From NCBI GenBank assembly GCA_050246115.1, contig JBFWWP010000032.1, positions 1,078 through 65,077 of the forward strand: a stretch of DNA of 64,000 nt. The letters are read 5' to 3'. Positions 4,140-37,100 of this stretch are shown here, in pieces. A program made the position numbers and the translations under genes. The stretch is from Planctomycetota bacterium. Lineage in GTDB: Bacteria > Planctomycetota > UBA8108 > UBA1146 > JAJFFE01. Under the pieces are notes generated by a model, which was not told the origin of the DNA, did not search any database, and saw only the letters and a list, made by a program, of their open reading frames with translations. Each line of letters opens with the position of its first letter. The first letter of the stretch is position 1.

Positions 4140-4655
4140 ATGGATGATGATGCGAGCCCGAGATCCGAGAAGAGCACCTCCGAATGGAGCACGCCGATTC
4201 CGTCCGAGAAGGTCGTGGTCGGGTGGCGTGAGTGGTTGTCCCTCCCCGAACTCGGGGTGGACCGGATCAAGGCCAAGATCGACACCGGCGCACGCTCGTC
4301 GGCGATTCACGCGTTCGACGTCGTCGAGTACCACCGCGCTGGACGCCATTGGCTGCGCTTCAATCTGCATCCGCTGCAGCGAAGTAGCGACGTGATCGTG
4401 CCGGCCAGGGCCCGGGTGCTCGATCGCCGCGAAGTCCGGAGCTCGACGGGACATCTGCACCTTCGTTGGTTGATTCGCACCGAGGTGGTGCTCGCCGGGC
4501 AGCGCTTCCCCATCGAACTGACTTTGAGCCGCCGCGACGAGATGGGGTTTCGGATGCTGCTCGGGCGCCAAGCGCTTCGCGGCAGATTCGTGGTCGACCC
4601 GGGGAGGTCGTTCGTCAGCGACCCTCGGCGGCGACGGGCCCGACGCCAGGCCTGA
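4140..4655 (+). CDS. ATP-dependent zinc protease-like / retropepsin-like domain protein (RimK-associated family, PF05618-like)
   Basis: VGWREWLSLPELGVDRIKAKIDTGARSSAIHAF matches the conserved DTGA-containing core of the putative zinc-protease family. Start chosen at ATG 4140 (MDDDASP) inside the 4095 ORF. Confidence 0.6.
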   Translation: MDDDASPRSEKSTSEWSTPIPSEKVVVGWREWLSLPELGVDRIKAKIDTGARSSAIHAFDVVEYHRAGRHWLRFNLHPLQRSSDVIVPARARVLDRREVRSSTGHLHLRWLIRTEVVLAGQRFPIELTLSRRDEMGFRMLLGRQALRGRFVVDPGRSFVSDPRRRRARRQA

Positions 4656-4858
4656 CACGGCACTCGACCCAGATCAAGCACGCACCGCGCTTGATCTGGG
4701 CCTGAGTTCCTTTCACAGGGCTTTCGCAGAGCCCCTTCGTGGATGCGGCAGAGCCGCGTCTACTTCATCCAGACGCACGCTTCCGGTGGAGTGCGCTCCA
4801 ACGGGAACCAGCCTCGATCTGGCGCCGCCCACCAGTCACGTTGCCCGCCAGCTGCTCG

Positions 4859-7477: not shown

Positions 7478-7790
7478 GAGATTCCCCTTTCGGTTGCGTG
7501 CCGGCCTGTGCTTCGCTCCTCGCGAGCACCCAGGTCGAGCACCGTTGGCGGGGCAACCACGGCGTTGTCGTGGAGTTGCTCCAGCTCCTCGTTGAGGAAT
7601 GGAGCCAATTGCGGACACACAATTCGGTGAGAACGAGGGGTCGTAGCGATTGTGGCCCACTCCCGGGACCCGGGTCGTCGCGCGTCTTGGGTGGCCAAGC
7701 CGCGATCGCGTCACCCCAGAAACGCTCGCCTTCGGCTCATAGCGCCAGCGCCAACTGGAGGCGCTCGTAAGTGTGCTCGCTCTTGGGGCA

Positions 7791-11418: not shown

Positions 11419-12182
11419 CGCCGATCACGAGCACGCGCAATCCCGAGGTGCGCCGACTCTGCACCCTCGCCACCGCCGCGGGCCGCCGCGAGCAAGGGAC
11501 GTTCTTGGTAGAGGGTTTGCGAGCCATCGACGGCTTTCTCGCCGCGGGCTGGATACCTCGACAGGCCTTCTTCGTCGACACCGGCGAGGCGCCACCTCAC
11601 TGGTCGCCGCTGTGGGCGCGTCCCGTCGCGAGTCTGGTGGCCCACAAGCTCAGCGGGCAGAAGACTCCATCCGGCTTCGCCGCAGAGTTTGCGATTCCGG
11701 TGCCCGCGGAACTCGACGAGCGGCACGGCGGCCTTGTCTGCGCAGGGGTCGCCGATCCGGGCAACCTCGGGACACTGCTGCGCAGCGCGGCCGCCTTCGG
11801 GGTCGAACAGGTGCTGCTGGTTGGGGGAGCCGATCCCTTTGCCCCCAAGGTCGTGCAAGCGAGTGCTGGAGCCCTCGCCTCATTGCGCCTCCGACGTGTG
11901 GACTCGATTCGGCTCGGTCTGGGGGGGAGCGCACGCGCCCCGATCGTCGGACTCGTCGTGGACGGCGGCGAGTTGCTCGGTGCCCAGCCCCGTTGGCCCG
12001 TATGGCTCGCAGTCGGCGGTGAGGCGCATGGGCTCGACAGCGAGGCGCTTGCTTGCTGCGACCATCGCTTCACACTGCCCATGCCGGGCGCGGCGATCGA
12101 AAGCCTCAACGCGGGTGTGGCTGGAGCCCTGGCCCTGTTCTTGCTCCGGGGGCTGCACCGCGACTCGCTGGCCGGTGCGTAG
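11412..12182 (+). CDS. SpoU/TrmH-family RNA 2'-O-methyltransferase
   Basis: TTG start overlapping the kinase stop. N-terminal TSTRNPEVRRL. SpoU motifs GVADPGNLGTLLRSAAAFG, ASAGAL and LPMPGAAIESLNAGVAGALALF. Confidence 0.75.
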   Translation: MLTPITSTRNPEVRRLCTLATAAGRREQGTFLVEGLRAIDGFLAAGWIPRQAFFVDTGEAPPHWSPLWARPVASLVAHKLSGQKTPSGFAAEFAIPVPAELDERHGGLVCAGVADPGNLGTLLRSAAAFGVEQVLLVGGADPFAPKVVQASAGALASLRLRRVDSIRLGLGGSARAPIVGLVVDGGELLGAQPRWPVWLAVGGEAHGLDSEALACCDHRFTLPMPGAAIESLNAGVAGALALFLLRGLHRDSLAGA

Positions 12183-12462
12183 ATCGGAGCTTCGCTCCGA
12201 ACGGACCGGCTGGCCCAGCGACTCTTCACCGGCGGAACCGCCCGAAGCCGCCCGCACCACGGCCCCTGTCCGTGTACTCCAGTGCTTCACGGCATCCGCC
12301 CCGACCCCCGAGCAGACGTGACCCAGCAACGAAAACGCGGTCGACCGACACGAACGTCGGACCACCGCGTTTTCTTCTTCGAAATCGGTGCTCGCCACGC
12401 CGCCTCCGAGGAGGCCAATCAGGCGGCGTGCGCGCTGCACCCGATCCAATCCCCGATGGAGG

Positions 12463-15400
12463 CTATGGGCACGGCATGTCGGCCGAGCACCCGAGCGTGT
12501 CCTCCTCGCCTGGGTCTGTGCCGCATCCCTCCACGAAGGGCTCGGGCGGGTTCGAGCCATTGGCGAACAAGTATCCAAGGAGGTAGATCGGGTCGCTGAT
12601 ATCCAAGTTGCCGCTGTCGTTCACGTCGCAGGCATCGTCGCAGGCTGCCGCTCCGCCGCCCGCGAACAGGAGTGAGAGCATCCGCACCGCGTCCGCGATA
12701 TCGACCGCACCGCTGGGGTTGCAGTCGCCGCGTACGAACTGCGGCAATCCAATCGCCGTGACCCCGACCGAGACCACCCAGTCCTGGACCGTAGTGCCAC
12801 CGGGCGCCGTGACGATCACGCGGAACGGGCGGTTGCCTGTCTGTACCCCGGTCGGCGTCCACTGAATCTGGCCAGTGTCGGGATCGATCGCAGCTCCTTG
12901 CGGTGCCAACGGCAACTGATAGTCGAGGCTACCGGCTTCCAAGCCAGGCAGGTAACCGTCTACGTCGTAGAGGTACGCCACGCCGACGGCGGCAGTCAGG
13001 ACCGGGGTGCTCACGACGACCGGGCCTGACAGGATCGGGCACGCGAAATCGACGGTGCAGCAGTGAGTGTTTCCGGGTATGCCCACCGAGTCGATGCAAG
13101 TGATGCAGTAGGTGCCCGCCTTGCAGTTGGGGACTACATACATCCCGTCGCTCGCTGCCACGAAAGCGATCGTCATACCGTTGAGGCTGATCTGCATCTC
13201 TCCGCAGCAGTCGGAGGGGGCCGGCGGTGGGGTCCAAGTCAGCACGAGGTTGCTCCCTTGGAACATACACATGACGCCGTCCACGCAGGGATCGCTGCAG
13301 TCTTCGGGGTCCACGGTGCAGCAGAGTACGGTCGGCGGCGTGCCCTGGTTGCTGCACTGCAGGCAGTACTCGCCGGGCTGGCATACTCCGGGAACCGTGA
13401 AGGTCGTTGTGCCGGGAGGAACCGGGAAGGTCGTGCCGCCGGCGGTGGTGACGCTGAGCGATTGGCAGCAGTCATGGCCCGATAGGGTCCAGGTCAGTAC
13501 CACCTGGCCGTTGACCACGTCGCACACGAAGTTCGACACGCACGGAGTGGGCCCGCAGGGCGGCAACGTGATGCAGCGATCGATCGCGCAGCAGTCCTGA
13601 AGGGTGGCGTCGTGGACCGAGATCTGGAAACAGAGAACCTGGCCCGGAACACCGCCCACGACCTGAGTCGACAAGGTCACGGATCCGCCAGGCGGGACCG
13701 GTGAGAAGCTGAACGCACTCGGCGCGAAGCTCACGCCAGCCGGGAGCGCCCCCAACAGGAAGGCGTTCTCGAGGGTAAAAGGAGAGACGTTCGTGAGCGT
13801 GAACTGATAGGTGTACTGGCCCGGGTTGAGCGGGTCACAGACGACCGACGCGTTCGAGACCTGGACGCAACCACAATCGGGTAGGTCCACACAGAACTCC
13901 GTGCCGCAGCAGTCCTCGAAGTTCGAGTCGAGCAACCCGAGGCGGAAGCACGCCTGGGTTCCACCCGTGCCGTTCGTGATCACGAACGTGACGGTCGCGC
14001 TGGCGCCGTTGGCGAGCGGCGGGCTCTGCGGAAACACGTTGGGCGAAGCCACCACCGGCGCCCCGGGAACGGTGGACGTCGGTGGAATCACGATGTTGGT
14101 GACGGGCACCCCCGAGTCGTTGGTCACCGTCATGTTGACGACGAACGTCGTGCCGGTCGGGTCGGTGAGGTCGCACAGGACTTCTACGTCGGTGATGGCC
14201 GCGCAGTCCGACGATGCAAACACCTCGGGAATCAGCACAAGGGTGCCGAGCGAGGTCTCCATCGAAGGGCCGCCACTCGCGGCGATGAAGGTGCTGTCGT
14301 CCCACTGCCCGCGAAGGTAGAGGTTGGCGTTGGTGTTGTCTTGATTGCGCACCAGCCAATTGAAGTAGCCCTCCCGCGGCGGGCCGGCGACGTTGGGTGC
14401 CAACCCGAATCCGGGTACGACTCCGGGGTTGCCCGTTTCCTCGCCGAACTCCCAGTCGAACGTCACGGCGCCGTTCACCAGCGGCACTTTCGCGATGTTG
14501 AGTGCGTCCGCTGTGATCCGAAGCGTGCGAGCTACGGTCCACATGGTGTAGTAGTTGCCACGGTTCCCTTCGCCGAGTCCGCCGATCGAGTCCTCGTGCC
14601 AGCCGGCCCCGAGCCAATCAATGGCTGCCTGACGTTTGGCTGCGATCGTGTTCAGCGGCGCCGGGGCCGCGGCAATCACGGCGCCCACCGGGACGATCGA
14701 CTCGGTTTCCACGAGTGCCAGCCCCGAGAGACCCGCGGACGTCGTCGATCGTCCTTGGTTGGTCGGCCAGGTAATGAGGGGCGAGTTCGAGTCGTAGCCG
14801 AACCACTGGGGGCCCGCCGCGTTCGGCTGGTGGAAGACCAGGCAGTACTCGGCTTCCTGCTTGATCCAGTCGGGAACAGGAATGTTGTAGTTGGTGGCCT
14901 CGGCACCCTCGAGTGTTACGAACATCCAGCTGTTGATGGACTGGTCGCTGCGCACCGATGGACCGGTGTAGTTCCAACCGCCGCGCGGGCCGCTCGGGGG
15001 AGCGCTGTTCTGTTGGGTGCCGATGAAGTCGATGAGATCCTCGACAACGGTCTTGTAAGAGTCACCGGCAAATGGACCCACCGTAACGAGACGGGCCGGT
15101 GACAGCGCGGCAATGATGGCCGCGGTCGAGATGGCGACCTGGTAGTTGTCCGAGGTGCCCATGCACGGCCGAATGCTACGTCCGTTCCCGTTCAAGTCGG
15201 AAACCCCGTTTGCGACCGCGCCCCGAACGACGTCAGCGTTTGCGGCAACAGTGCCCGCCACCACGAGGTTCGCGAACAGCTGATCGAGGCCACGTTGGAC
15301 GAACTCGGCGTAGATGTCGTCGTCGCTGGCGATTGGAGTGGTGGGCTTGTGTCCCTTGTTGCCGAAGCACCAGAGTGCGAACCCGCCCTCTGCACAGGGG

Positions 15401-17524: not shown

Positions 17525-18409
17525 TCAGGCCGGTTGGGGGCTTCGCGTCCTTACCGAGACCACGGGGCACTCGCCCAGACGTTGGAGCAGGTTGGCGTCG
17601 GCGCCGGCAACAATGACCGCCCGTGGACTGCTGATTGCCCCCGGCTCCAGCGCTTCCTCACGAACGAACTGGACCTGACCGGAGCGCGCCGCCTGCCGTA
17701 GGAACCGGAGGACCAGACCCGTGTGATCGACGAACATGACCGGGCAGGGTGCCGTGGTCGCCGTCTCCCGAGCCGGGCCGCCGCCGCCACCGGGCGCGGC
17801 CTCGGAGCCCGACGCCGGGGCAGTCCGGCGCACGAACGGCACGTCGGAAGGGATGGTCGCCTGCGTCGCGTGGAGCTCTCGGACAGGGAGGAAGACTGCG
17901 ACGTCGCTAGCCTCGCCGCCGACCCGCATGACGATGCGCAACGACTCCGGATGCACTCCGGCTTCCGGAGGAAGCGCGAGCCCAGCGGGGTAGTGTTCCA
18001 CCGCCCGTTCATCGACCTTCGTGGACATCCGCGCATCCGGGCTCGCGAGTCGATTCCACGACCCGAGAAGGACGTTCCAGATCTCAGTCAGCGCTTCCTC
18101 GACGAAGCCACCGAAGACGAACGGCTCGTCCGCGCGCGGTGGGTCCATGAGCATGGCGGCGTATGCCATGAGTAGCGCGAGCCGCTCACTCACTAGGATT
18201 CCGCCGACTCCGGAGGCATTGCGAATGTAGCAGGCGCGGCAGCACACGTGGCCGGCCTTGCCGGCACCGAGCAGGTCGTGAACCGAGGCGATGCTCAGGT
18301 TCCCGAGATCGAATGTCACCGGCAAGCCCAGGAGATTCGTCAGGTCGGTCGCAACGCCTTCGAAGCTCTTTCGGAGCTCGGCCTCGAAACTACGGCTGAT
18401 TCGCGCCAT
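17525..18409 (-). CDS. CheC/CheX-family chemotaxis phosphatase-like protein
   Basis: FEGVATDLTNLLGLPVTFDLGNLSI and EALTEIWNVLLGSWNRLASP resemble the paired E-x2-N...P repeats of CheC-type CheY-P phosphatases. Sits last in the cheX-cheY operon. Confidence 0.5.
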   Translation of the reverse strand: MARISRSFEAELRKSFEGVATDLTNLLGLPVTFDLGNLSIASVHDLLGAGKAGHVCCRACYIRNASGVGGILVSERLALLMAYAAMLMDPPRADEPFVFGGFVEEALTEIWNVLLGSWNRLASPDARMSTKVDERAVEHYPAGLALPPEAGVHPESLRIVMRVGGEASDVAVFLPVRELHATQATIPSDVPFVRRTAPASGSEAAPGGGGGPARETATTAPCPVMFVDHTGLVLRFLRQAARSGQVQFVREEALEPGAISSPRAVIVAGADANLLQRLGECPVVSVRTRSPQPA

Positions 18410-18491: not shown

Positions 18492-18851
18492 TCATGCCGG
18501 TACGACTTCCTTGATCTGGCTGGCCAGTTGGTCGGGGGTGAAAGGCTTCGCAACGAAGCCGTTGGCGCCAGCGTTCTTGGCCTCCGTCTGCTTCGAGAAG
18601 TGGGTCTCTGTCGTCACCATCAACACCGGCGTCGTCGATCCCAGTTTCCGTAGTTCGCGCACGAAAGTCAGCCCGTCCATGTTGGGCATGTTCCAGTCGC
18701 ACAGGATCAAGTCCGGGTCGTTGGGAACTTGCGCGAGCGCAAGCTGTCCATCACCGGCTTCCAGGATCTCGGCTTGAACCCCGCCCGACGCCAACGCGCG
18801 CTTGATCATGTTCCGCATTACCGCCGAGTCGTCTACGATCAAGATCTTCAT
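18492..18851 (-). CDS. cheY: CheY-like single-domain response regulator
   Basis: MKILIVDDSAVMRNMIKRAL, phosphoacceptor region LILCDWNMPNMDG, LMVTTE, AKPF. 119 aa. Start overlaps upstream cheX stop (ATGA). Confidence 0.85.
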   Translation of the reverse strand: MKILIVDDSAVMRNMIKRALASGGVQAEILEAGDGQLALAQVPNDPDLILCDWNMPNMDGLTFVRELRKLGSTTPVLMVTTETHFSKQTEAKNAGANGFVAKPFTPDQLASQIKEVVPA

Positions 18852-19360
18852 TGAGCTCCTCCTGCACGGGCACGTTCATGGTTCGAACTGCACACCTTGT
18901 GTGGCTTCATCTGTAGCACGGTATCGACGACCAACCCACTCGCGAAACGGAAGCGATCGGCCTGAGACGCACAAGTCACGCATCCCGCCAAGCGTAGGCT
19001 GCGGCCCTGGATCACGGAGGGCAACCCAAGGCTCAGGTTGTGGGGCTCGAGTCGGGTCTTGATCCCGCCTGCCGCCAGATTGGCGATCTCTCCGAGTCCG
19101 TCACTCGTCGTCGCGTCATTGGTCGATGGCGCCCCGAGCATGGAGGCGACCAGCTCTTCCGCCGCCGTCGCCGTCACCAGGAGATGGAGCACTGCGTCCA
19201 TGGACTCGCCTTGTAGGGCGATCGTGGCGATGAAGTCGTTGGCTCCGTGGACATCGTCCCGATCGGGACTGACGATACGCTCGACCTCGACGCCAAACAT
19301 GCCGAGTGCCTCGCGCAACGCGGGCTCGACGGCACCGAACAACTCTGGGTCCAAGTGCAT
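18848..19360 (-). CDS. cheX: CheX-type chemotaxis phosphatase
   Basis: DGLGEIANLAAGGIKTRL...LSLGLPSVIQG matches the CheX/CheC GE-x-N-x3-G motif. Start at internal ATG 19360 (MHLDPELF) by frame arithmetic. Confidence 0.65.
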   Translation of the reverse strand: MHLDPELFGAVEPALREALGMFGVEVERIVSPDRDDVHGANDFIATIALQGESMDAVLHLLVTATAAEELVASMLGAPSTNDATTSDGLGEIANLAAGGIKTRLEPHNLSLGLPSVIQGRSLRLAGCVTCASQADRFRFASGLVVDTVLQMKPHKVCSSNHERARAGGAQ

Positions 19361-19595
19361 AGCTCCTTTCCCGACGAACGACCTGGCCTTTCGAGGTATC
19401 GGCGTTCTCCGGGGCGGTACTTTTGGGGAGGTTGAGACACGCTTGTCGTCCACGGCGCTTCGGGGGCCCGCCGGGACGCAGCTTACCGGCTCGTCCTCGA
19501 CCGGCGTCGAGGCGGGACCCCGGTGGACGAATTGGCCGGTTCGGCTGCCTCGGGGTATGTTTCTTAGGGGCTGCTACACCGGAAGAGAGTCCAAA

Positions 19596-19967
19596 ATGCG
19601 CACCATCGTCATCGATGATTCCCGGGCCATCCGCAGCATTCTGCGTCGTATCCTTACCGACCTCGGGTTCGAGGTGCTGGAAGCCGGGAATGGCAAGGAA
19701 GCGCTTTCGACACTCGCAGCCAGCGGTCCCGTGGAACTCGCGCTCGTCGACTGGAACATGCCGGAGATGAATGGTTACGAGTTCCTGAAAGCCTTTCGAG
19801 CGGACCCTAGTTCCGCCAATACGAAGATCATCATGGTGACCACGGAGACGGGCACCGAGGAGATGATCAAAGCGATCGAAGCCGGCGCCAATGAGTACGT
19901 CATGAAGCCCTTCGACAAGGAGATGATCGCCTCCAAGCTCGAGATCCTCGGGATCCCGGCCTGCTGA
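19596..19967 (+). CDS. cheY: CheY-like single-domain response regulator
   Basis: MRTIVIDDSRAIRSILRRIL, LALVDWNMPEMNG, IIMVTTE, MKPF. GGAAGAGAG SD upstream of ATG 19596. The upstream part of the 19038..19967 track ORF was rejected. Confidence 0.85.
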   Translation: MRTIVIDDSRAIRSILRRILTDLGFEVLEAGNGKEALSTLAASGPVELALVDWNMPEMNGYEFLKAFRADPSSANTKIIMVTTETGTEEMIKAIEAGANEYVMKPFDKEMIASKLEILGIPAC

Positions 19968-19980
19968 AAGAGGTGCGCTC

Positions 19981-21060
19981 ATGAAGGCGCGTGTTCTGAT
20001 CGTCGACGACTCCGTGGTGATTCGCCGGGTGCTGAGCCAAGCGCTCGGGAGCCATCCCGACATCGAAGTGGTCGGCACTGCTGCCAATGGCCAGATTGGG
20101 CTGGCGAAGATCGCTCAGCTCGAGCCAGACGTGGTCACCATGGACATCGAGATGCCAGTCCTGGACGGCCTCGAGACTTTGGCTGAGCTGCGGAAGACCC
20201 ACCCCCGGCTACCCGTGATCATGTTCAGCACACTGACGGAACGCGGTGGACAGGCAACTCTCAAGGCACTGTCGCTCGGGGCCTCCGACTATCTGACCAA
20301 GCCGAGCCAGACCGAGAGTCCGGGTGAAGCCATCGAGCAAGTGAAAGACGACTTGATCGCGCGGATCCTTGCCCTTACCGGCCGTGGTGAAGCGCCGGTG
20401 CGCACGCCGAGCCCCGCTCCTGCGCGCCCGCGGGATCCCCAGCCCGGCCGCGTGGACATCGTTGCGATCGGGGTCTCGACCGGCGGCCCCAATGCGCTCG
20501 CTGAGATCTTCCCGCGCTTGCCCGCCGACCTGCCGGTGCCGATCGTGCTGGTGCAGCACATGCCGCCGCTGTTTACGCGCTTGCTCGCCGAGCGGCTGGA
20601 CAGCGTCTCGCCGCTCAAGGTATCCGAGGCCAGCGACGGACAGGTGATCGCGCCGGGCACAGCGTGGATCGCCCCCGGGAACTTCCACATGACGGTCGAG
20701 CGGAGCGGCACTGACGTCGTTCTTCGGACCCATCAGGGTGCACCCGAGAACTCGTGCCGGCCGGCGGTCGATCCACTGTTTCGCTCAGTGGCCAGCGTGT
20801 ACGGCCGGCATACGCTGGCGGTGATCCTGACCGGGATGGGACAGGACGGTAAGAAGGGCTGCGAAGTGCTGCACGAACTCGGTGCTCAGATCATCGTGCA
20901 GGATCGCGCCAGCTCGGTCGTGTGGGGCATGCCTTCCGCGGTGGCCCTGAATGGCTTGGCACAAGCCGAGCTGCCGTTGAATGCGATTGCGGACGAAATT
21001 GGTCTGCGGACGCGCGCTCACCGAACCTCTCGGACGCGACGGTCCTTGGCCTCTTCCTGA
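19981..21060 (+). CDS. cheB: Chemotaxis response regulator protein-glutamate methylesterase CheB
   Basis: N-terminal REC domain (VLIVDDSVVIRRVL...VVTMDIEMPVLDG). C-terminal methylesterase DIVAIGVSTGGPNAL, VLVQHMPPLFT, GMGQDG. Confidence 0.9.
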   Translation: MKARVLIVDDSVVIRRVLSQALGSHPDIEVVGTAANGQIGLAKIAQLEPDVVTMDIEMPVLDGLETLAELRKTHPRLPVIMFSTLTERGGQATLKALSLGASDYLTKPSQTESPGEAIEQVKDDLIARILALTGRGEAPVRTPSPAPARPRDPQPGRVDIVAIGVSTGGPNALAEIFPRLPADLPVPIVLVQHMPPLFTRLLAERLDSVSPLKVSEASDGQVIAPGTAWIAPGNFHMTVERSGTDVVLRTHQGAPENSCRPAVDPLFRSVASVYGRHTLAVILTGMGQDGKKGCEVLHELGAQIIVQDRASSVVWGMPSAVALNGLAQAELPLNAIADEIGLRTRAHRTSRTRRSLASS

Positions 21061-21071
21061 ACGAGAGCTTA

Positions 21072-21905
21072 ATGCCGCCGAAGACTTCTGGTTTGGAGTT
21101 CGTCCGTACCCTGGTCCGAGACCGAGCGGGTATCGTCCTGGAGAGCAACAAGGACTACCTGATCGAGTCCCGCCTCAGTGCGGTCGCCCGTAAGTGCGGT
21201 CATAGTTCGCTCGACGACTTCTTGGACGCCATTCAAGGCAAGCGTGACCCCGAGGTCCTCGCGACCGTCGTCGATGCAATGACTACGAACGAAACCTCGT
21301 TCTTTCGTGAGATGCACGTCTTCGAAGGACTGAGGAAGACCGTGTTGCCGGAGTGCATCGAGTTCAACAAGTCTCGGAGGCAGCTGAACTTTTGGTGCGG
21401 GGCCGCCTCTAGCGGACAGGAACCGTACACGATCGCCATGGCGCTTCAGGACTGGTTCCCGGAACTTGCCACCTGGAAGATCCAGTTCACGGCCACGGAC
21501 ATCTCGCAGGAGATGCTCGCACGGTGCCAGGAGGGGGTTTACTCCCAGCTCGAGGTCAATCGTGGGCTGCCCGTACCCATGCTCCTGAAGCACTTTCAGA
21601 AGCAGGGTGCGGACTGGCGTGTCAAGGACCACCTGCGTCGGTACGTCACCTTCCGTGAGCTCAACCTGATCGGCAAGTGGCCGCCGTTCCCAACGCTCGA
21701 CGTGGTGTTCCTCCGCAACGTGCTGATCTACTTCGACGTCGATACCAAGAAGAAGATCCTCGCCAACATCCGCACCTTTCTTCGCCCGCAAGGATTCTTG
21801 TTCCTCGGCTCGGCCGAGACGACTTTGAACCTCGACAACGACTTCGAGCGCGTCAAGTTCGATCGCGGTTGCTGTTACCGTCACGTCCCCAGGAAGGCAA
21901 CCTGA
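21072..21905 (+). CDS. cheR: Chemotaxis protein methyltransferase CheR
   Basis: TNETSFFRE, SAdoMet-binding NFWCGAASSGQEPYTIAM, FLRNVLIYFD. Start at ATG 21072 (MPPKTSG) inside the 20922 ORF, just after the cheB stop. Confidence 0.85.
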   Translation: MPPKTSGLEFVRTLVRDRAGIVLESNKDYLIESRLSAVARKCGHSSLDDFLDAIQGKRDPEVLATVVDAMTTNETSFFREMHVFEGLRKTVLPECIEFNKSRRQLNFWCGAASSGQEPYTIAMALQDWFPELATWKIQFTATDISQEMLARCQEGVYSQLEVNRGLPVPMLLKHFQKQGADWRVKDHLRRYVTFRELNLIGKWPPFPTLDVVFLRNVLIYFDVDTKKKILANIRTFLRPQGFLFLGSAETTLNLDNDFERVKFDRGCCYRHVPRKAT

Positions 21906-21906
21906 C

Positions 21907-22368
21907 ATGCAGGCTCATATGCAGGAGATCACCCGCTTCACCGAGAGCATCTGGAGCACGATGCTCGGATTCATGGTGCAAGCCCAAGTGGGGTCGAGCG
22001 AGCGGGAACTCAGCGAGGTCTCGGACCACGAAGTCGTCGCTTCCGTGGCCATTGCGGGCGCCTGGAACGGTTCGGTCGCGGTCGTCTGTAGCGAGAATCT
22101 GGCGCGCCGTGCCGCTGGCGCCCTCTTCGAGAAGCCCTTCGGGGAGGTCACTCTCGAGGAACTCTCGGACGCCATGGGCGAACTCGCGAACATGATTGGT
22201 GGCAACCTGAAGTCGTTGCTGCCCGCTCCCTCGCATCTCGAAACGCCGTGGATGGCGTGTACTCGTCGCGGGGCCCGGTTCTTGCCCGAGCAGGCCATCA
22301 TCACCCAGGCTGCGTTCGAGTGCGATGGGGCCGGGTTCCGGGTCTACCTTCTCAAGCCGTCTTCCTGA
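21907..22368 (+). CDS. cheX: CheX-type chemotaxis phosphatase
   Basis: LSDAMGELANMIGGNLKSLLP is the CheX/CheC signature. 153 aa. Immediately follows cheR. Confidence 0.6.
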   Translation: MQAHMQEITRFTESIWSTMLGFMVQAQVGSSERELSEVSDHEVVASVAIAGAWNGSVAVVCSENLARRAAGALFEKPFGEVTLEELSDAMGELANMIGGNLKSLLPAPSHLETPWMACTRRGARFLPEQAIITQAAFECDGAGFRVYLLKPSS

Positions 22369-22553: not shown

Positions 22554-24734
22554 TTACTCGAACTTGAACCGACCGACCAGCTTCTGGAGCCCCGCGGCCA
22601 TCTCCGAGAGTTCTTGGGCCGCCTTCTGGGTATCGCTTGCCCCGGAAGACGTGCTCTCCGCCGCTTGGGCGACTCCCGTGATGTTCTCGGCGATCTCGGT
22701 AGTGCCGCGGGCCGCCTCGGCCACGTTGCGTCCGATTTCGTTGGTGGCAGCGGTCTGCTCCTCGACCGCACTGGCGATGGTGTTCGAGATGTCGTTGATC
22801 TGCTTGATCACGCCCGAGATCTGGGCGATCGCGTTGACCGCGCTCTTCGTGTCCTCTTGGTTGGCCTCGATCTTCTGACTGATCTCCTCGGTTGCCTTGG
22901 CGGTCTCCTTGGCGAGCTCCTTGACCTCGTTCGCAACGACCGCGAAGCCCTTGCCGGCCTCTCCGGCGCGCGCCGCTTCGATGGTGGCGTTCAAGGCGAG
23001 CAGGTTCGTCTGTTGAGCGATCGAGGTGATCACTTTGATCACTTGTCCGATCTCCGCGCTGCTGTTCCCGAGCTTGGCGACGATCGCGTTGGTCTCGTCG
23101 GCCACGCGAACTGCTTGCGTCGCGACGCGCGCCGCTTCGTTCGCGTTGGTGGCGATCTCCGAGATGCTCGCGGTCATCTCCTCGGCGCCGGTTGCCACGG
23201 TTTGCACACTCTTGCTGACCTCGCCGGCCGCGTTCGACACCACACTGGCTTGGGCCGAGGTCTCCTCGGCGTTGGCGCTCATCTGCTCGCTGACGGCCGT
23301 GATCTCGTCCGCGGACGCCGCCAGGCCCTGGGCGCTGTGGGCGATCGTCGAGATGCTCCCGCGCAGGTTCGAGAGGAACTTGGACAGTCCGACCGCGAGC
23401 TGACCAATGGCATCGCTGCCATCGAGGTCGATGCCGCGGGTCAGATCGCCGTCCTGGGCCGACTGCACCACGTCCAGGATCAGGCTCACCTTCTCGCGCA
23501 GCTCGGCTGCTTGAGCGCGCTCGCGCTGCTGCGCCGCCTCGATCTCCTGCTCCTGCTTGAGCTGATCGGTGATTACCGCCCATGACACCATGGGCCCGAT
23601 GTAGGTGCCCTTGGCGTCGTTGATGGCCGACACCTGGAGGTCCAGCGTTTCCGGACCGAGCTGGATCTGTGCGCGGTGTGGCAGGTTGCGCGGGTCGCTG
23701 AGCATCTTGCGCTGATGCTCCGGTCGTTTGTGGAAGATGTCGATGCTCGCGCCGACGACCTTGTCGGCGGGAATCGGCAGGTACTGTTCGACTTTGCGCA
23801 GCGTGGCGAGCGATGCAGGGTTCATGTAGGTGATACGGAAGTCGAGGTCAGTCATCATGATGTTGATCGGCGCGTTCTCGACGAGGGCGAGGATCCGCGC
23901 CTGATCGTTGGCCATGCGGAGTTTGTCGGTGATCACCTCCCAGGTGACCATCGGACCGACGTAGTTGCCGTTGGCGTCGTAGATTGGGCTGACGAGCAGG
24001 TCCGCGGTCTCCGGGCCGATCTGAATCGACGTCCGGTGCGGCAGGTTCGCCGGGTTCTTCAGCAAGCGTCGCTGGTGCGAAGGGTTCTTGTGGAACACGT
24101 CGATGCTGGCGCCCACCATCTGATCCACCGGAATCGGCAGGTACTGCTCGAGCTTCTCGAGCGTGGTCCGTGAGGCCGGGTTGACGTACGTCAGGACGAG
24201 GTCTTCGTCCGCGAGCAGTACGTTGACTGGTGCGTTCTCGAGCATGGCCAGGAGGGTCTCCTGGGTCATTTCCTTTTGCCGCGTCTGCGTCTTCGTCATT
24301 GCCAAAGCCTCTTTTCCACCGACCGATTCGTCCGGGGTATTGATGATTTGTGCTGCCAGGGGACCGATCCGCTGCATGACCTCTCGAACTAGGTCGTCTT
24401 GGACACCGGCAGACGTGAGCGTTGCCGTGAGATGCTGGGCGATCCGCGAGAAGTGACGTCCTTGGATCGAGAGGTGAGAGTGGGCGGATTCCATGTCGCG
24501 CCCCTTGTAGCTGCGCGGCCCGTCCAAGGCCTGGGAGAAGAATGCAACTTGCTGCTTCTTCAGCCACTGCATGTCCGTACGTTCAAAGAACGTCGACACC
24601 AAGGGGTCATCCAGAACCAATTCATAGAAAGCATCCACGACGCTCTTGAGCGCTGCCTTGCCCCCGAGGCGGTCGTAGAGCGACTGCGTCGCGGGAGTTC
24701 CGGGTACTGAGGGCGTCTCGTTGCGCACGGTCAT
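22554..24734 (-). CDS. Methyl-accepting chemotaxis protein with N-terminal truncated haemoglobin (group I trHb), two PAS domains and C-terminal MCP signalling domain
   Basis: trHbN signature [32 protein letters not shown]...[15 protein letters not shown] (B10 Tyr, GG motif, proximal His). Two PAS-like segments follow. Highly conserved MCP core [33 protein letters not shown]. No transmembrane segment seen. Start at ATG 24734 (MTVRNET). Confidence 0.8.
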
Positions 24735-24762
24735 TGGAGTTCCGTTCACGCTGGGCAAAGAG

Positions 24763-25221
24763 TCAGAGCGACGGGGAAGACGCCACCGCAGTGTCGAGCG
24801 CCCTGCGGGTGTCGAGCACGAGGAGGAGTCGACCGGGGTGTTTGTAGACGCCCTTGATGAGCTCGCGCACCGACGCAGCGACCGTCTCGGGTGGAGATTC
24901 GTAGCTCTCCGGGTGGACTTCGAGAACGTCGCCGATGTCATCGACGAGGAGGCTCACCGCGCCTTCCGACTCGCGAACCACGACATTCATCGGCAGCTGC
25001 CCGGGCTCGCGATCGGGTAGGCCGAGGCGCCGTCGCAGGTCGATCGCGGTGACGATCTCCCCCCGCAAGTTGATCAGGCCGCTGACCTCGGGGGGGGCCA
25101 ACGGCACCATGGTCATGCGCTGGTAGCGGATGACCTCTTGAACGTCGAGTACGGGAATCCCGAGGAACAACTCACCCAGGTAGAAGGTGCAGAGCTGTCG
25201 GGTCTGGCTTTCGCTATGCAT
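24763..25221 (-). CDS. cheW: Chemotaxis coupling protein CheW
   Basis: [22 protein letters not shown]...[18 protein letters not shown]...LVLDTRRAL is a typical CheW fold. Start at ATG 25221 (MHSESQT), overlapping the cheA 3' end. Confidence 0.85.
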
Positions 25222-27448
25222 GAGCGACCTCCTGGAGCAAGCTGGGATCGAAGGCGGAAACGATCGAGTCGAGGTCGACGAACTGCGTGACGCGGTCATG
25301 GACGACGGCGGTTTGAGTGACGCCCTTGCGCGGGATCTTGCGTTGAACCTCGATCGTCTCATCGACGATGTCGAGGATGCGCCCGACGACCAGGCCAACG
25401 CTGGACGAGCCACGCGAATGAACGATGACCTGATAGACCTGCCGTTCGCTCTCCTCCGTGGTTACATTGAAGAGCCGTGGCAGGTTGAGGAGTGGCATGA
25501 TCTCGCCGCGGTACTGAACGACTTCTTGACCGCCGACGAGTTCGACGCGGTCGAACGGGATCTCTTCGAGCCGGGCAACCGCAGCCAAAGGCATGGCCAT
25601 CTGTTCTTTGCCGCCGAGGCTGAACAGGAGCAGGGCTTGGCGGCGCCCGACGCTCTTGCTGTCGGCATGCTCGAAGCGGCCGACCTGGCGCTCCGCGTGT
25701 TCGGTGACCACCTGGGCGCGCTGAGCCAAGCCCATGACGTCCAGGATCAGCGCTACCTTGCCGTCGCCACGGACGGTGGCTCCGGCGAAAGCACTGGCAC
25801 CCTTGAGTTGCCGACCGAGCGGTTTGACGACGATCTCCTCAGTGTCGTTGATCCCTTCGACGACGAGGCCGAACTGACGGTCGTCGGCCTGGAGGACGAC
25901 GATGTTGACGATCGAGTCGGTGCGCGGCGTGTCGGCAGCCTTGGCGATTCGCAGTTCCTCGTCCAGGAAGACGAGTGGGAGGATGTTCCCGCGGAGTCGG
26001 TAGACCGGGGCGCGGTGGACATACTCGATGCCGTCGCGGGCTTGGTCCCCCTCCAGGCGGACCAGTTCGAGGAGGTTGACCTGGGGGATCGCGTACTGCT
26101 CGCCGCCGGTCGAAACCACCAGCGCGGGGATGATGGCCAGGGTCAGCGGGATCTTCACCCGCAGCGTCATACCTTGGCCGAACACGCTTTGCACGTCGAC
26201 CGTGCCGCCGATCTTCTCGATGTTGGTGCGGACCACGTCCATGCCGACGCCGCGGCCGGAGACGTTGGTCACCTTTTCTGCGGTCGAGAAACCTGGACGG
26301 AAGATGAGGTTCACCGCCTCACGATCGCTCATGCGTGCGTGCTGCTCGGCGGTGATGACGCTACGCTGCAGGGCCTTCTCCTTGACCCTTTCGATGTTGA
26401 TGCCAGCGCCGTCGTCGATGATCTCGATATTGACCTGGCCGCCCTCGTGGAACGCTCGTAGGAGGAGGCAGCCTTCTTCGGGCTTTCCTTTCTGACGGCG
26501 GACTTCGGGGGGTTCGATACCATGGTCGACCGAGTTGCGAATGACGTGTGTGAGCGGGTCCTTGATGGCCTCGATGATGGTCTTGTCGAGCTCGGTGCCC
26601 TCACCCTCCATCTCCACACGGACCTTCTTGCCACAGGCGCGCGACAGATCGCGGACCACGCGTGGGAACCGACTCCACACGGTGTGGATGGGCTGCATGC
26701 GGGTTTTCATGACACCGCCTTGCAGTTCTGTCGTCACGAGGTTGAGTCGCTGAGTGGTCGCGAGGAAGGTGTTGTCGTTGAGGTTGGCGGAGAACTGGAG
26801 AATCTGGTTCCTGGCCAGCACGAGTTCGCCAACCAGGTTCATGAGCTTGTCGAGTTGGGCGACGTCGACCCGGACGGCGGTGTCGGCCAACGAGGCGGCC
26901 TTGGACTCGTTGGGACGGCTCGGCTCGGGCGCCGGTTCGCCGGGCGGCGACGAAGCAGGCGCTGCCCCCGCTTCGGCCGGACGAACTCGTTCGGCCTTCT
27001 CGACCATGGGCGGAACGGGCTCAGGTGGAGCCGCGGGGACCGCTTCGGCCACGGCCGGATCGGCTTGGCGGCTTGGGTCCTGCAGGCGCGTGAGCAGTGC
27101 GATCAGTCCGGAGTCGTCGCGAACCCCCTCGTTCCCGGAGTTCTCGATGGAGGAGAGCATTTGGCGCACCGCGTCGACCATGGCGAGCAACGCGGTGGTG
27201 ATCTCCTGGTTCAGTTGCAGCTTGCCGTCGCGCAGCATGCTGAGGAGGTTCTCCCCGTTGTGCGTGACGGACTCGAGCTTGTGGAAGGCGAGGAACCCGC
27301 AGGTACCCTTGATCGTGTGGATACAGCGGAAGATCGCCGCCAGGAGATTGCGGTCGGTTGGGTCCTTCTCGAGCGCGATCAGGTCACGGTCCAACTGGTC
27401 GAGGCCCTCGTAGCTCTCCACCAGAAACTCTCGGATTAGGTCGTCCAT
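25214..27448 (-). CDS. cheA: Chemotaxis histidine kinase CheA
   Basis: HPt site FRCIHTIKGTCGFLAF. Dimerisation and HATPase_c regions (HLIRNSVDHGIE, GRGVGMDVV). Two C-terminal CheW-like domains. Start at ATG 27448 (MDDLIREFLV). Confidence 0.9.
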   Translation of the reverse strand: MDDLIREFLVESYEGLDQLDRDLIALEKDPTDRNLLAAIFRCIHTIKGTCGFLAFHKLESVTHNGENLLSMLRDGKLQLNQEITTALLAMVDAVRQMLSSIENSGNEGVRDDSGLIALLTRLQDPSRQADPAVAEAVPAAPPEPVPPMVEKAERVRPAEAGAAPASSPPGEPAPEPSRPNESKAASLADTAVRVDVAQLDKLMNLVGELVLARNQILQFSANLNDNTFLATTQRLNLVTTELQGGVMKTRMQPIHTVWSRFPRVVRDLSRACGKKVRVEMEGEGTELDKTIIEAIKDPLTHVIRNSVDHGIEPPEVRRQKGKPEEGCLLLRAFHEGGQVNIEIIDDGAGINIERVKEKALQRSVITAEQHARMSDREAVNLIFRPGFSTAEKVTNVSGRGVGMDVVRTNIEKIGGTVDVQSVFGQGMTLRVKIPLTLAIIPALVVSTGGEQYAIPQVNLLELVRLEGDQARDGIEYVHRAPVYRLRGNILPLVFLDEELRIAKAADTPRTDSIVNIVVLQADDRQFGLVVEGINDTEEIVVKPLGRQLKGASAFAGATVRGDGKVALILDVMGLAQRAQVVTEHAERQVGRFEHADSKSVGRRQALLLFSLGGKEQMAMPLAAVARLEEIPFDRVELVGGQEVVQYRGEIMPLLNLPRLFNVTTEESERQVYQVIVHSRGSSSVGLVVGRILDIVDETIEVQRKIPRKGVTQTAVVHDRVTQFVDLDSIVSAFDPSLLQEVAHA

Positions 27449-27782
27449 GCACTTCCCTTGGAGTTGTTCGACGTGGCGATGGGGTACGCTAGGTCTCGGC
27501 CTGACAGCTTTATCGACAGAACTGCGCGGTTCCCTTAGCGACCGAGGCGTGGGTCCCGGAAGCGTGGCGAGGCCGGCCGTCGGGAGGGAGGAGCCCGGGG
27601 GCGCGCGACCGCAGCGCACCGGCGGGTTCGCCGCGCACGATGCAGGCTTGCCAGGGGGCTAGCGAGGAGCACCGTTGGCCAGTATCCTCGGAAGCCTTGC
27701 GAGCCGCTGGCGGGGAGGGCGGCGCGGCGACCCCGGTCTCGGGTCACTGTTTCGACGCCAACTCCCTTTCAGAAAACAGCTT

Positions 27783-28757
27783 ATGGACCAGGGACGGGCA
27801 CTCCAGAGGGAGCTTCCGCCGCCCTCTGGGCAAGAGCAGATGGACGATCAGCGTAGACACAACGAAACCTCCTTCCTCGCCGGGGCGCCGTTTCATCGCC
27901 TCACGCCAGCCCAAGAGTTGCGCCCATCCCTGGTCGTGATGCAGGGCGCCAACGTAGGGCTGCGGTATCTGTTGAACGAAGCCCGACTGGTCATGGGCCG
28001 TGGGCTCGACCAGGCCCAACTGGTACTTCCCGACCGTTCCGTCTCGGGTGTTCATGCGGTCGTTACGCGCACCGGCGAAGGCGTGACGGCGACTTACTCG
28101 GTACAGGATCTCGGAAGTCGGAACGGGACCTTCGTGAACGGAACCCGACTCGAGGGCTCGGAGACCCGGGTGTTGGTGTCCGAGGATCGTATCGCCCTGG
28201 GGGAGACGGTCCTCAAGTTCACGCTGATGGATGACGCCGAGGGCGACTTCTACGGCAAGATCAGCTCGCTCATGTATCAGGATGATCTGACGGGCCTGGT
28301 CAACAAGCGGCGCTTCGACACGGACTATCACGTCAGTTTCGAGTCCGCGGTCCTTCGCCGCCGCCCGATCGCCGTGGTCATGATGGACATGGACCGCGTC
28401 AAGCAGATCAACGACACCCACGGTCACCACTACGGGGCCTACACGATCGCCGCTACCGGGAAGTTGATCGGCGCGGCTTTTCGGCCGCCGGCCTTGGCCA
28501 CGCGATTCGGGGGGGACGAGTTCATCGCGTACATCCCGGGACTCCGGGCCGACGCCGCCGTGGAGGTCGCGCAGTCGGTCGTGCAAGCGGTGCGGGACTT
28601 CGTCTACGAACTCGATGGCGTCCGCGTCTATCCGACCCTCAGCGTTGGGGTCGCGGCCTACCCCGACGCCGGTCCGACCCCGGAGGAACTCGTTCGAGCT
28701 GCCGACGCGGCGCTCTATCGGGCCAAACAGAACGGACGCAACCAAGCGTCCGTGTAG
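27783..28757 (+). CDS. FHA-domain diguanylate cyclase (FHA-GGDEF)
   Basis: FHA core LVMGRGLDQAQLVLPDRSVSGVHAVV...GSRNGTFVNG. GGDEF domain with LTGLVNKRRF, RFGGDEF active site, and LYRAKQNGRNQ. Start ATG 27783 or 27840 (uncertain). Confidence 0.8.
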   Translation: MDQGRALQRELPPPSGQEQMDDQRRHNETSFLAGAPFHRLTPAQELRPSLVVMQGANVGLRYLLNEARLVMGRGLDQAQLVLPDRSVSGVHAVVTRTGEGVTATYSVQDLGSRNGTFVNGTRLEGSETRVLVSEDRIALGETVLKFTLMDDAEGDFYGKISSLMYQDDLTGLVNKRRFDTDYHVSFESAVLRRRPIAVVMMDMDRVKQINDTHGHHYGAYTIAATGKLIGAAFRPPALATRFGGDEFIAYIPGLRADAAVEVAQSVVQAVRDFVYELDGVRVYPTLSVGVAAYPDAGPTPEELVRAADAALYRAKQNGRNQASV

Positions 28758-34172: not shown

Positions 34173-37100
34173 TCAGAAGCGGGATCGTGGCAGCGGCTCG
34201 AGTAGGTCCTGGTAGCGGGCGCGCTCCGATGGCGTGAAGTCGCGGAAGAGACGACCGCGGACGGCGTCGAGCAGAGTCTCCGGACTGGCCCACCACAAGC
34301 GCGCCGTGCGGTCGAACGACGACGTCGCGACGCGGGTCCCGTCGGCGGAGAACTCGGCCGACCATACGACTCCGGAGTGGCCGTTCAACGTGAGCACGAG
34401 GGTGCCGTCCAGGCTCCAAATGCGCGCGGTCTGATCTCGCGACGCCGTGAGTACGCGTTGCCCGTCGGGCGAGAAGACCGCGCTGAGGACCGCTCCTTCA
34501 TGACCGCGAAGGACGGCGAGGCACGCGCCGTCGGCCACGCGCCAAACACGCGCGGTGCCGTCGTCGGAGCCGCTCACCAGGGTACTGCCGCTTGGGTCGA
34601 ACCGTACGCTATGAGGCAGCCCCGTGTGACCGTCGAGCTGGGTGATCAGGGCGCCCTGCGGGGTCCAAACGCGAATGCTCTTCGCGCTCGTCGTCGCCAA
34701 TCGCTGGCCGTCCGGCGCGAAGACCGCCGACCACACGAGGTCGTCGTGCCCCGTGAGTCGAGCGAGGACTCGTGCGTCGGCGTCGAGCACCAATGCGGAG
34801 CGATCGTTGCCGCGGGCGACGAAGCGCCATGCGGTCCCACCGAACCAGCCGCAGAGGACTCTCTTCTCGGGACTCGCGATCGTCCAGTGGAGGGTGCCAT
34901 CGAGGCTCCACACGTAGGCGCTTGGACCACTGGTGGTGGTGAACACGCGCGCCCCAGTGGGCAAGAAGGAAGCCGAGTAGACGAGCTCATCGTGGGGCAG
35001 TACGAGCCGCTCCCGTCCGTCGCGACTCCACACTCGCGCCGTGCGGTCGCGCCCGCCGGTGACGACGAGGTCGCCGTCGCACGAGAACGCCGCTGAGTAC
35101 AAACCCAGAGAGTGACCGCGAAAGACAGGGAGTCCCGCCGGTTGCAGGTCCCAGAGGCGCACGGTGGTGTCGGTCGAGGCCGTGACCACCGTGGTCATGT
35201 CCGGCGCGACCAGCGCCGCGTTGACGCTGGCGTCGTGCCCTCGAAAGAAGCTGACCGGTGTGCCGTCGAGGCGCCAGAGACAGGCCGATTGGTCGGCGCT
35301 CGCGGTGACGACGTACTGATCGTCGGGCGTGATCGTTGCATGATGGACGGCTCCGCCGTGGCCGCGGAACACGGCGATCTCGCGTCCGGCACGGTCGAAG
35401 AGACGCGCGGTCTGATCCGACGAAGTGGCGAGGATCTCACCGCGCGGCGTGAAGGATACGCTCTGCACGCGATCGTCGAGGGCGAGTTGCGGCCCCAGGG
35501 ACTCACCGTCGGCACCGAATCGCAGCAACTCGCGGTTCCCGACGGCCACGAACTCCGGTTCGCCGAACGCGGTCGCGAGTCGTGGAGGCCCACTGAAGTT
35601 CGTCACGCGTTCCCATTGCTCCTTGCCGGTCTCGACTTCGAAGCAGCGGAGACTTCCGCCGGCGCCCGCAACGATGAGAAGTCGGTCGCGATCGATGAGC
35701 GCTGCGTCGTGGAGCCGACTCATGCCCATCGGAAACTGGGAGCGAACGGCTCCGGACGCCGCGTCCCGGATGGTGCAGCGCGCGCACTCGACCTCGAAGA
35801 GGGTCGCACCCAGCGTGTCGAAACGAAGTATCCGCGGTGAGCGCTCGGGATCTGAGTCGCCAGCCGCCACGTGGGCGTCGCCCACGAGGGTCGGGCTGGG
35901 TGTCTGGGCCAGATTCCAGGCGAAGGTGTTCCCAGCGCTCGTAGCGAACGCGAGGCGTCGGCCGCTCGGCGCGACGGCCACCGTCACGATCTCCTCGGTC
36001 GACGCGAAGCTCGCGATCCGGACGCCGCCCCAGGTCCACGCCTGCAGGGTATGGCGATCGACGCTGACGAAGCCGGTCGCGTCGCCCAATGCGTAGAGTT
36101 GCTCGACACTCTCCTCGTGGCCCGTGAGCACCTGGCGCTCGTGGAGCGCCGCCATCACTTGATGGAGTTGCGATAGCGTCCGTGGGGTGGGCTCGGTGTC
36201 GACGGCTTCGCGAGCGAGGAGTAGCGCCAGCAACGGATCTTGACCCGCGGCTTCGGCGGACGCGCTCACGAAGGTGACCGCGCGCGCATGCCTGAGGCTC
36301 CGATCGCGGTGGTCGATCGCTTGATTCAAGCCATGAACGTAAACCGCCGTGGTCGCGAGCAAAACGATGGTCGTTGCCGCCAGCGTGGCGGCGAGGATGG
36401 GGTTGCGCGCGATGGCCATCTGCAACAGCTCGCGCACGCTCGGCCGACGCGCCGCGATGGGGCGCGCCTCGAGAAAGGCGCGCAGATCGCTCGCCAACTC
36501 GGCCGCGGAGGCATAGCGTTGATCCGGCAGGGGCAGCGTGGCGCGGCGGATGATGACATCGAGATCTCGGGGTACGCGCGGCTCCAGGCGACGCACGCGC
36601 GGCACCATCCCACGAGCCCATGGGTGCGACCGGGCGTCGGGGTTCATGCCGACCAGCGGATGCTGCTGCGCCAAGAGTTCGAACAAAGTCACGCCCAAGC
36701 TGAAGATGTCGCTCCGCACTTCCGCCCGGCCTTGCAGGCACTCTGGCGCCAAGTAGCGGAGCGTGCCGACGAGGTCACCGGTACGGGTGAGATCGCTTCC
36801 TTCCTCGGTCTTGCACAGGCCGAAGTCGGTGACCCACGCATGGTCCTGGTCGTCGAGCAGGATGTTCGAGGGCTTGATGTCGCGGTGCACGACCCCGTGC
36901 GCGTGCGCATGGGCCAAGGCTTCCGCTACTTCGAGGCCGATCCGAGCCGCGCGCCGCAGATGCGCCTCCCATGCCTCCGCGGCGCTCAGTGCGCTCGCGT
37001 CCAGACCCTGGATCACGGCGTCGAGCCCCCGACCCTCGATGTATTGCATCGCATAGTAGTGCCGGCCGCGGTCCGTACCCACGTCGTACACGGGAACGAT

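Follow-up and report, generated by a model that had tools for sequence, protein, structure and literature searches.

A minus-strand gene in a 64,000-nucleotide (nt) stretch of DNA from a Planctomycetota bacterium (GCA_050246115.1, contig JBFWWP010000032.1, positions 1,078-65,077 of the forward strand; hereafter the window) encodes a chemoreceptor whose N-terminal domain is a group I 2-on-2 haemoglobin (trHbN) and not a sensor globin. The gene lies at 22554..24734 (726 codons plus stop), and its product is composed of the truncated haemoglobin (trHb), a linker, two PAS domains (PAS1 and PAS2), a HAMP-like unit and the kinase-control module of a methyl-accepting chemotaxis protein (MCP). Judged by sequence, both PAS domains are haem PAS domains of the Aer2 type. 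Taking the statement as a whole, we consider it somewhat probable that the protein is a soluble, dimeric-type O2 receptor of the Aer2 kind that carries the trHbN as an extra N-terminal domain with a modulatory role or as an additional input.

The globin domain (amino acids (aa) 18-131, 24342..24683, minus strand) was matched by the Pfam family Bac_globin (PF01152) with E=1.9e-23 and 83.4 bits (cut-off 21), whereas the sensor-globin family Protoglobin (PF11563) reached 12.8 bits on the receptor, under its cut-off of 25. The N-terminus contains the motifs LYDRLGG, FY37ELV, F49F50 and SAH85SH, with G24-G25 forming the Gly-Gly motif of the AB corner. Ungapped alignment to Mycobacterium tuberculosis HbN placed Y37 at B10 (nt 24624-24626), F50 at CD1, L58 at E7, Q62 at E11, F66 at E15, H85 at the proximal F8 position (nt 24480-24482) and I98 at G8. 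The best PDB matches in a phmmer search were structures of HbN (1IDR/5AB8, E=1.3e-24), followed by Chlamydomonas, Tetrahymena and Synechocystis proteins that are also group I truncated haemoglobins. Group I entries covered E=1e-24 to 1e-14, the best group II entry (HbO) reached only ~5e-6 and no group III entry was recognised in the PDB list. An AlphaFold2 (AF2) model of aa 1-145 had a predicted local distance difference test score (pLDDT) of 93.5 and, as modelled, the domain has the 2-on-2 helical sandwich fold. The top Foldseek match of this model was 1IDR (template modelling score 0.89, root-mean-square deviation 0.8 Å, 43% identity), and ranks 1-27 were all group I proteins.

Conservation was examined in 68 receptor-fused homologues. 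The F8 His and the CD1 Phe are present in 68/68, the B10 Tyr in 67/68, the E11 Gln in 63/68 and the E7 Leu in 60/68, so that the Gly-Gly motif, Y37, F50, L58, Q62 and H85 are each kept in 60-68 of the 68. Position E10 of the fused globins has no conserved His or Lys, and there is therefore no sign of a built-in sixth ligand. The domain is predicted to bind haem b and diatomic gases. A preliminary description of this stretch had identified a group I trHbN from the same motifs; the Bac_globin and Protoglobin scores, the resemblance to HbN and the conservation of the haem-ligating His and Tyr all bear this out. The globin is joined to the N-cap helix of PAS1 by a low-complexity tether that starts at the trHb H helix (aa 132-150, 24285..24341, minus strand), as delimited from the AF2 model and family comparison. 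Model confidence is low throughout aa 131-149, and pLDDT is <50 at aa 137-149. Across the family, the distance between the end of the H helix and a conserved Asn of PAS1 varies from 22 to 85 aa (median 45), and the intervening region is rich in A, T, S, G, K, N and P, is not conserved and sometimes has extra PAS domains inserted.

The two PAS domains follow directly on one another on the minus strand, PAS1 at aa 151-269 (23928..24284) and PAS2, which adjoins the HAMP unit, at aa 270-389 (23568..23927). In the PDB phmmer search, this region matched the PAS domain of VcAer2 (6CEQ, E=6.8e-18) and that of PaAer2 (3VOL, E=3.9e-16), and 4HI4 was also matched. In Aer2 proteins, a His of the Eη helix coordinates the haem and a Trp of the Iβ strand stabilises O2 (PMC10107281). 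Both residues occur in both PAS domains of the receptor, the His within an FHK motif. The predicted ligand is H215 (nt 24090-24092) in PAS1, where the Trp is W265 (nt 23940-23942), and H335 (nt 23730-23732) in PAS2, where it is W385 (nt 23580-23582). The pairs H215/W265 and H335/W385 are invariant in the homologue alignment, and across the family the His is kept in 413/415 aligned repeats and the Trp in 411/415. The NCBIfam model for Vibrio Aer2, NF041847, matched the receptor over aa 145-399 only, with E=2e-86 and 290.8 bits against a cut-off of 1200. With H85 of the trHbN, H215 of PAS1 and H335 of PAS2, each monomer would have three b-type haem sites.

The part of the receptor that follows PAS2 begins with a linker helix and a single HAMP-like unit (aa 390-460, 23355..23567, minus strand), in which AF2 places AS1 at aa ~416-427 and AS2 from aa ~442, with low confidence. 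The Pfam HAMP match was insignificant (E=0.93); AF2 secondary structure and alignment to Escherichia coli MCP profiles indicate a single HAMP at aa ~410-460. No di-HAMP was found between PAS2 and the bundle, which are separated by just ~70 residues (aa 390-460) with one AS1/AS2 pair. The MCP kinase-control module occupies aa 461-726 (22557..23354, minus strand), and MCPsignal (PF00015) matched aa 530-695 (E=1.7e-33). In the MCP profiles from E. coli and Salmonella, positions 223-510 aligned with query residues 417-704, 288 against 288 and without net indel. These E. coli receptors belong to class 36H, and the alignment indicates that the bundle is of the 36-heptad length class. The receptor ends in ...LVGRFKFE and its homologues in ...V(G/S)xFK(Y/V); a C-terminal tethering pentapeptide (e.g. 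EWEEF) is absent from the receptor C-terminus.

Pfam matches along the whole receptor were Bac_globin, two PAS domains and MCPsignal, with E-values far beyond chance. The full-length AF2 monomer model (pLDDT 79, predicted template modelling score (pTM) 0.35) comprised a globin (aa 18-130), a linker of low confidence, the two PAS domains connected by helices, one AS1/AS2 pair and one long helical module. The highest 19-residue Kyte-Doolittle mean across the receptor is 1.05; therefore, no transmembrane (TM) helix is predicted and the receptor is expected to be soluble. The gene lies within an open reading frame (ORF) of 795 aa (22554..24941, minus strand), in which Met70 falls at 24734. The start at 24734, which gives a product of 726 aa in a frame that is unbroken to 22554, was accepted because a reading extended to 24941 would overlap cheW by ~180 nt in a different frame, because a Planctomycetota protein of 726 aa from a metagenome-assembled genome (MAG) in NCBI (MGE3166595.1/MGE3964989.1) is 100% identical to the receptor, and because the N-termini of homologues begin 5-30 residues ahead of the SLY/FxRLGG motif. 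The stop codon of cheW, at 24763-24765, is 28 nt ahead of the receptor ATG. A GTG six codons upstream (24752) is a possible alternative start that would make no material difference. The preliminary description had placed the start at 24734 and had read two PAS domains, a canonical MCP signalling domain and no TM segment; these points all stand.

The distribution of this architecture was determined in two ways. Among the best 120 homologues of the receptor protein, an N-terminal trHb precedes 2-6 tandem Aer2-type PAS domains and the MCP module in 69, and the remaining 51 share the PAS-MCP body but have no globin. Species-representative genomes, scanned with a globin+PAS alignment, gave 489 relatives, and of the 80 loci that were kept, 31 encode a trHb-PAS(n)-MCP protein. 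By their record titles, the 31 loci come from Planctomycetota, Acidobacteriota (Bryobacterales, Terriglobia), Bdellovibrionota, Myxococcota (Polyangiaceae), Nitrospirota (Nitrospirales), Gemmatimonadota (Gemmatimonadales), Spirochaetota (Spirochaetaceae), Verrucomicrobiota and Elusimicrobiota MAGs, at least eight phyla overall. In ~24 of the 31, cheA-cheW (or a remnant at the contig end) directly precede the receptor gene, and most have cheY-cheB-cheR-cheX downstream on the same strand, which gives the usual order cheA-cheW-receptor-cheY-cheB-cheR-cheX. Every trHb-MCP protein inspected keeps at least one intact Aer2-type PAS domain. Since the fusion is found in 69/120 homologues and 31/80 loci and in many phyla, it is real, ancient or recurrent, and under selection, and the design is common among uncultured bacteria.

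Related clusters contain other arrangements of the same parts. In a Nitrospina sp. MAG (locus L029, JABHBK010000001.1), the CheA at 10050-12683 has a PF01152 domain between Hpt and the dimerisation domain, the usual place of P2, and in a SAR324 MAG (locus L069, JACZSY010000016.1), the CheA at 3596-7228 has PF01152 N-terminal to Hpt; the MCP next to each of these globin-CheAs is of the poly-PAS (Aer2-type) kind and has no globin. A globin is combined with CheA in the fragments P0201 and P0226 as well. The homologues P0028, P0071 and P0085 have a 3-on-3 Globin domain (PF00042, aa ~40-145), recruited from an unrelated globin class, in the position of the trHb, on the same poly-PAS-MCP body. In another homologue, P0039 (1171 aa), the PAS repeats are preceded by a tandem pair of trHb domains (aa 8-125 and 129-244). 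Tandem arrays of Aer2-type haem PAS domains reach 6-7 per receptor in homologues including P0001, P0004 and P0008; such arrays exceed the 1-3 PAS domains of characterised Aer2 receptors, and nearly every repeat keeps the haem His and the O2 Trp.

A search of the representatives with the globin domain gave a rough picture of where else such domains occur: among the 150 matches listed, 99 were multi-unit trHbs, and the single-globin matches included 14 MCPs, 2 CheAs and 25 short proteins. By globin distance, receptor-fused and free-standing trHbN could not be told apart (mean 0.55 among the fused domains, 0.56 between fused and free), and for this reason we do not claim a dedicated clade of receptor-fused trHbN. 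The nearest neighbour was a receptor-fused globin for 3/4 CheA-fused globins, which is a weak hint. Stand-alone globin ORFs beside PAS-MCP genes in L024 and L067 were considered as well; at distances of 0.7-0.8 they are probably unrelated.

A receptor with the same Pfam domains had been described before. Sharma, Parales & Singer (2018) reported, in silico, the Bac_globin+PAS+MCPsignal receptor Cc_4972 of Corallococcus coralloides and six further cases among 8,075 complete genomes, one of them in the planctomycete Rubinisphaera brasiliensis, noted a cheA-cheW-MCP gene order and proposed a role in aerotaxis (PMC6194562). The passages of that paper on these receptors assign no trHb group and do not link the PAS domains to the haem PAS of Aer2, and the word "truncated" occurs nowhere in its text (PMC6194562). 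Going by the published description of Cc_4972, it and our receptor share three Pfam domains, an MCP without a TM segment and the cheA-cheW-MCP order. They differ in that the Cc_4972 cluster is described with ABC1 and ABM genes between the MCP gene and cheB, whereas a Pfam scan of the genes neighbouring our receptor found only CheX, CheR, CheB, CheY, CheW and CheA and no ABC1 or ABM. A 2026 review of aerotaxis cites only this in-silico study for such receptors (PMC13401364). In the literature searched, we found no experimental work on any trHb-PAS-MCP member, nor an experimental study of a truncated haemoglobin fused to a chemoreceptor or another signalling output. The architecture has thus been known in silico since 2018 and our receptor adds one member; together with the counts in homologues and loci, this overturns the suggestion in the preliminary description that it is unusual.

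Among the closest known systems are the Aer2 receptors, namely PaAer2/McpB of Pseudomonas aeruginosa, VcAer2 of Vibrio cholerae, VvAer2 of Vibrio vulnificus and LiAer2 of Leptospira interrogans. Our receptor shares with them homologous PAS domains (6CEQ, 3VOL, 4HI4) with the Eη His and Iβ Trp, solubility (LiAer2 excepted), a kinase-control module of 36H length and a location in a che cluster. It has two tandem haem PAS domains, as does VcAer2; VvAer2 has three. Unlike the Aer2 receptors, it has an N-terminal truncated haemoglobin, and the clusters of its family have the order given above and include CheX phosphatases. The N-terminal variations listed for Aer2 receptors are HAMP, PAS and periplasmic ligand-binding domains, with no mention of a globin (PMC10107281). 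Overall, the receptor is Aer2-like in its sensor part and lies outside the full definition of the Aer2 "core", which includes a di-HAMP.

The globin itself has two points of reference. HemAT and other globin-coupled sensors also carry an N-terminal haem globin on a soluble MCP and have a proposed role in aerotaxis. HemAT has a 3-on-3 sensor globin of the Protoglobin family that is coupled to the signalling helices without an intervening PAS domain. Our receptor has the MCP signalling output of a HemAT-type protein and lacks the 3-on-3 sensor globin; its globin belongs to the 2-on-2 group I trHbs, and a flexible tether, two haem PAS domains and a HAMP lie between it and the output. M. tuberculosis HbN, with 43% identity, shares with the receptor globin the residues at B10 (Tyr), E11 (Gln), E7 (Leu), E15 (Phe), CD1 (Phe) and F8 (His). 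HbN exists as a protein of its own that takes part in NO detoxification, whereas the trHbN described here is the N-terminal module of a chemoreceptor.

How the receptor may work can be outlined by analogy with characterised Aer2 receptors, in which the HAMP-adjacent PAS domain is the O2 sensor and suffices alone, and upstream domains modulate (PMC10107281). O2 would bind the haem of the HAMP-proximal PAS2 and be held there by W385. The resulting conformational change would be passed from the C-terminal helix of PAS2 through the single HAMP to the 36-heptad kinase-control bundle, which would regulate the CheA and CheW encoded directly upstream; CheR, CheB, CheY and CheX of the cluster would serve adaptation and signal termination. 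PAS1 and the trHbN would then be upstream modulators. Because its distal pocket is HbN-like (Tyr B10, Gln E11, Leu E7), the trHbN should have a very high affinity for O2 and should react with NO. Its most likely role would be that of a second gas input or a tuner of the PAS response, which might, for example, let the response reach down to much lower O2 or depend on NO. Such an influence would be exerted via ligand-dependent contacts and not through a continuous helix.

Several observations weigh against an Aer2-like receptor with a modulatory globin. Sensor globins have tight helical coupling, whereas the trHbN here is connected to PAS1 by a variable, non-conserved, low-complexity link of low model confidence, which is unusual for the allosteric coupling of a sensor domain, and at a pTM of 0.35 the AF2 monomer does not reliably inform on inter-domain contacts. 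The receptor has one HAMP where the Aer2 core has a di-HAMP (PMC10107281), lacks the C-terminal xWxxF pentapeptide that Aer2 has, and its 290.8 bits are far under the cut-off of the Vibrio Aer2 equivalog. Moreover, in the L029 and L069 clusters the globin is in CheA and not in the receptor, and a pathway-level accessory role therefore fits no less well than a sensory role within the molecule. Collectively, the linker, the CheA fusions and the replacement by PF00042 suggest that the essential feature is the tethering of a globin to the signalling array, which is compatible both with a modulatory second gas input and with a local NO dioxygenase or O2 buffer. We can only tentatively propose the wider idea that group I trHbs were recruited as a dedicated module of one Aer2-like pathway family, with receptor N-terminus and CheA as interchangeable sites and an occasional 3-on-3 replacement.

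The second of these options, that the trHbN is an enzyme or buffer tethered to the array and not a signalling input, is rather unlikely in our estimate and ranks second. The domain would act as an HbN-type NO dioxygenase, in which oxy-haem and NO give nitrate, or as an O2 store beside the PAS haems; it would shield the ferrous PAS domains from NO, which could poison or falsely trigger them, or condition local O2, and the PAS haems alone would give the O2 signal. NO-dioxygenase activity is established for HbN, and the distal pocket of the receptor globin equals that of HbN (Tyr B10, Gln E11, Leu E7, Phe E15, Phe CD1). The linker is flexible and not conserved, the globin recurs on different pathway proteins (the receptor N-terminus, CheA in L029 and CheA in L069), P0028, P0071 and P0085 carry a 3-on-3 PF00042 globin in the same position, and both recruited globin classes are known for NO dioxygenation, the sensor-globin class not being among them. 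The hosts include several nitrite oxidisers (Nitrospina and Nitrospirales MAGs). On the other hand, no reductase gene that could recycle ferric haem is conserved in the cluster across the 80 loci, a free-standing trHbN could do the job without fusion, and VcAer2 and VvAer2 were reported to be unresponsive to NO or CO (PMC10107281).

In the preliminary description, the protein was a chemoreceptor built on a trHb in place of the HemAT sensor globin. The trHb is indeed present, but it is the most distal domain, and both PAS domains appear to be haem PAS domains of the Aer2 type. That the trHbN is the principal gas sensor and the PAS domains mainly transmit is improbable in our view. It would agree with the near invariance of the globin haem and ligand residues in the fused family and with the constant N-terminal position of the globin, the usual place of an input domain. 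However, the haem His and O2 Trp are retained in both PAS domains and in nearly all repeats of the family (413/415 and 411/415), 51 of the top 120 homologues retain the PAS-HAMP-MCP core without any globin, the HAMP-proximal PAS alone suffices for O2 signalling in characterised Aer2 receptors (PMC10107281), and a disordered tether, not a continuous helix, lies between trHb and PAS1. Merger of separate trHb and MCP genes through a frameshift, chimera or wrong start, or a degenerate globin relic that no longer binds haem, is very improbable. Nothing specific points to an artefact, although the sequence is a single one derived from a MAG. Against it, the reading frame runs unbroken between 24734 and 22554, dozens of independent assemblies, drawn from many phyla, contain the fusion, and the globin models at pLDDT 93.5. 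The proximal His in 68/68 and the B10 Tyr in 67/68 fused homologues effectively refute this explanation.

The receptor gene is part of a che cluster. Directly upstream on the same strand are cheW (24763..25221, PF01584 E=1.9e-31) and cheA (25214..27448), the start of cheW overlapping the stop of cheA, and the immediate adjacency of cheW-cheA given in the preliminary description is thereby confirmed. By Pfam, CheA comprises Hpt, dimerisation, HATPase_c and two CheW-like domains; the two CheW-like stretches (P5 and a second, C-terminal one) are likewise found in the CheAs of L029 and L069. On the other side, cheY (19596-19967), cheB (19981-21060), cheR (21072-21905) and cheX (21907-22368), all identified with Pfam, form a plus-strand block (19596-22368) that converges on the receptor gene. 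This block is inverted in the window; in most relatives it is on the same strand, downstream of the receptor. A second cheX (18848-19453) and a second cheY (18492-18851) follow on the minus strand, again by Pfam, and after this pair comes an ORF of 294 aa (17525-18409, minus strand) with no Pfam match and no counterpart in the 80 related loci. Upstream of cheA, a divergent gene (27675-28757, plus strand) encodes an FHA-GGDEF diguanylate cyclase, and ORFs similar to GGDEF proteins are also found near the receptor cluster in L024, L030, L051 and L053. The wider surroundings (4859-7714, minus strand; 8623-11418, plus; 34173-37520, minus; 39374-42106, minus; 50214-52166, plus) look typical of Planctomycetota and include Ser/Thr kinases fused to TPR or WD40 repeats and two long ECF-sigma fusion proteins. 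No Pfam family matched the ORF at 4859-7714 (951 aa), which is overlapped by another large ORF on the opposite strand and may for that reason be spurious.

The physiological roles of truncated haemoglobins are debated, and NO detoxification, O2 delivery and oxidative chemistry have been proposed. The trHb-PAS-MCP family offers a widespread natural test of whether a 2-on-2 globin can feed into signalling or is there to protect the haem sensors to which it is joined. For such receptors there are established assays, including hijack behaviour in E. coli, haem spectroscopy and domain deletions. The value of the receptor lies in this well-defined, testable system and not in the architecture itself, which is not new. 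It also bears on the question, raised by Aer2 researchers, of why the N-terminal domains of these receptors vary (PMC10107281). A 2020 review of globins placed chimeric bacterial T globins in groups O and P and not in N (PMC7475203); the receptor corrects the statement that they belong only to the former two. If the haem state of the trHb (deoxy, oxy or NO-oxidised) alters kinase output, a 2-on-2 haemoglobin would for the first time have a role in signalling, and the protein would be a receptor with three haems that integrates either O2 across a very wide range of concentrations or O2 and NO jointly.

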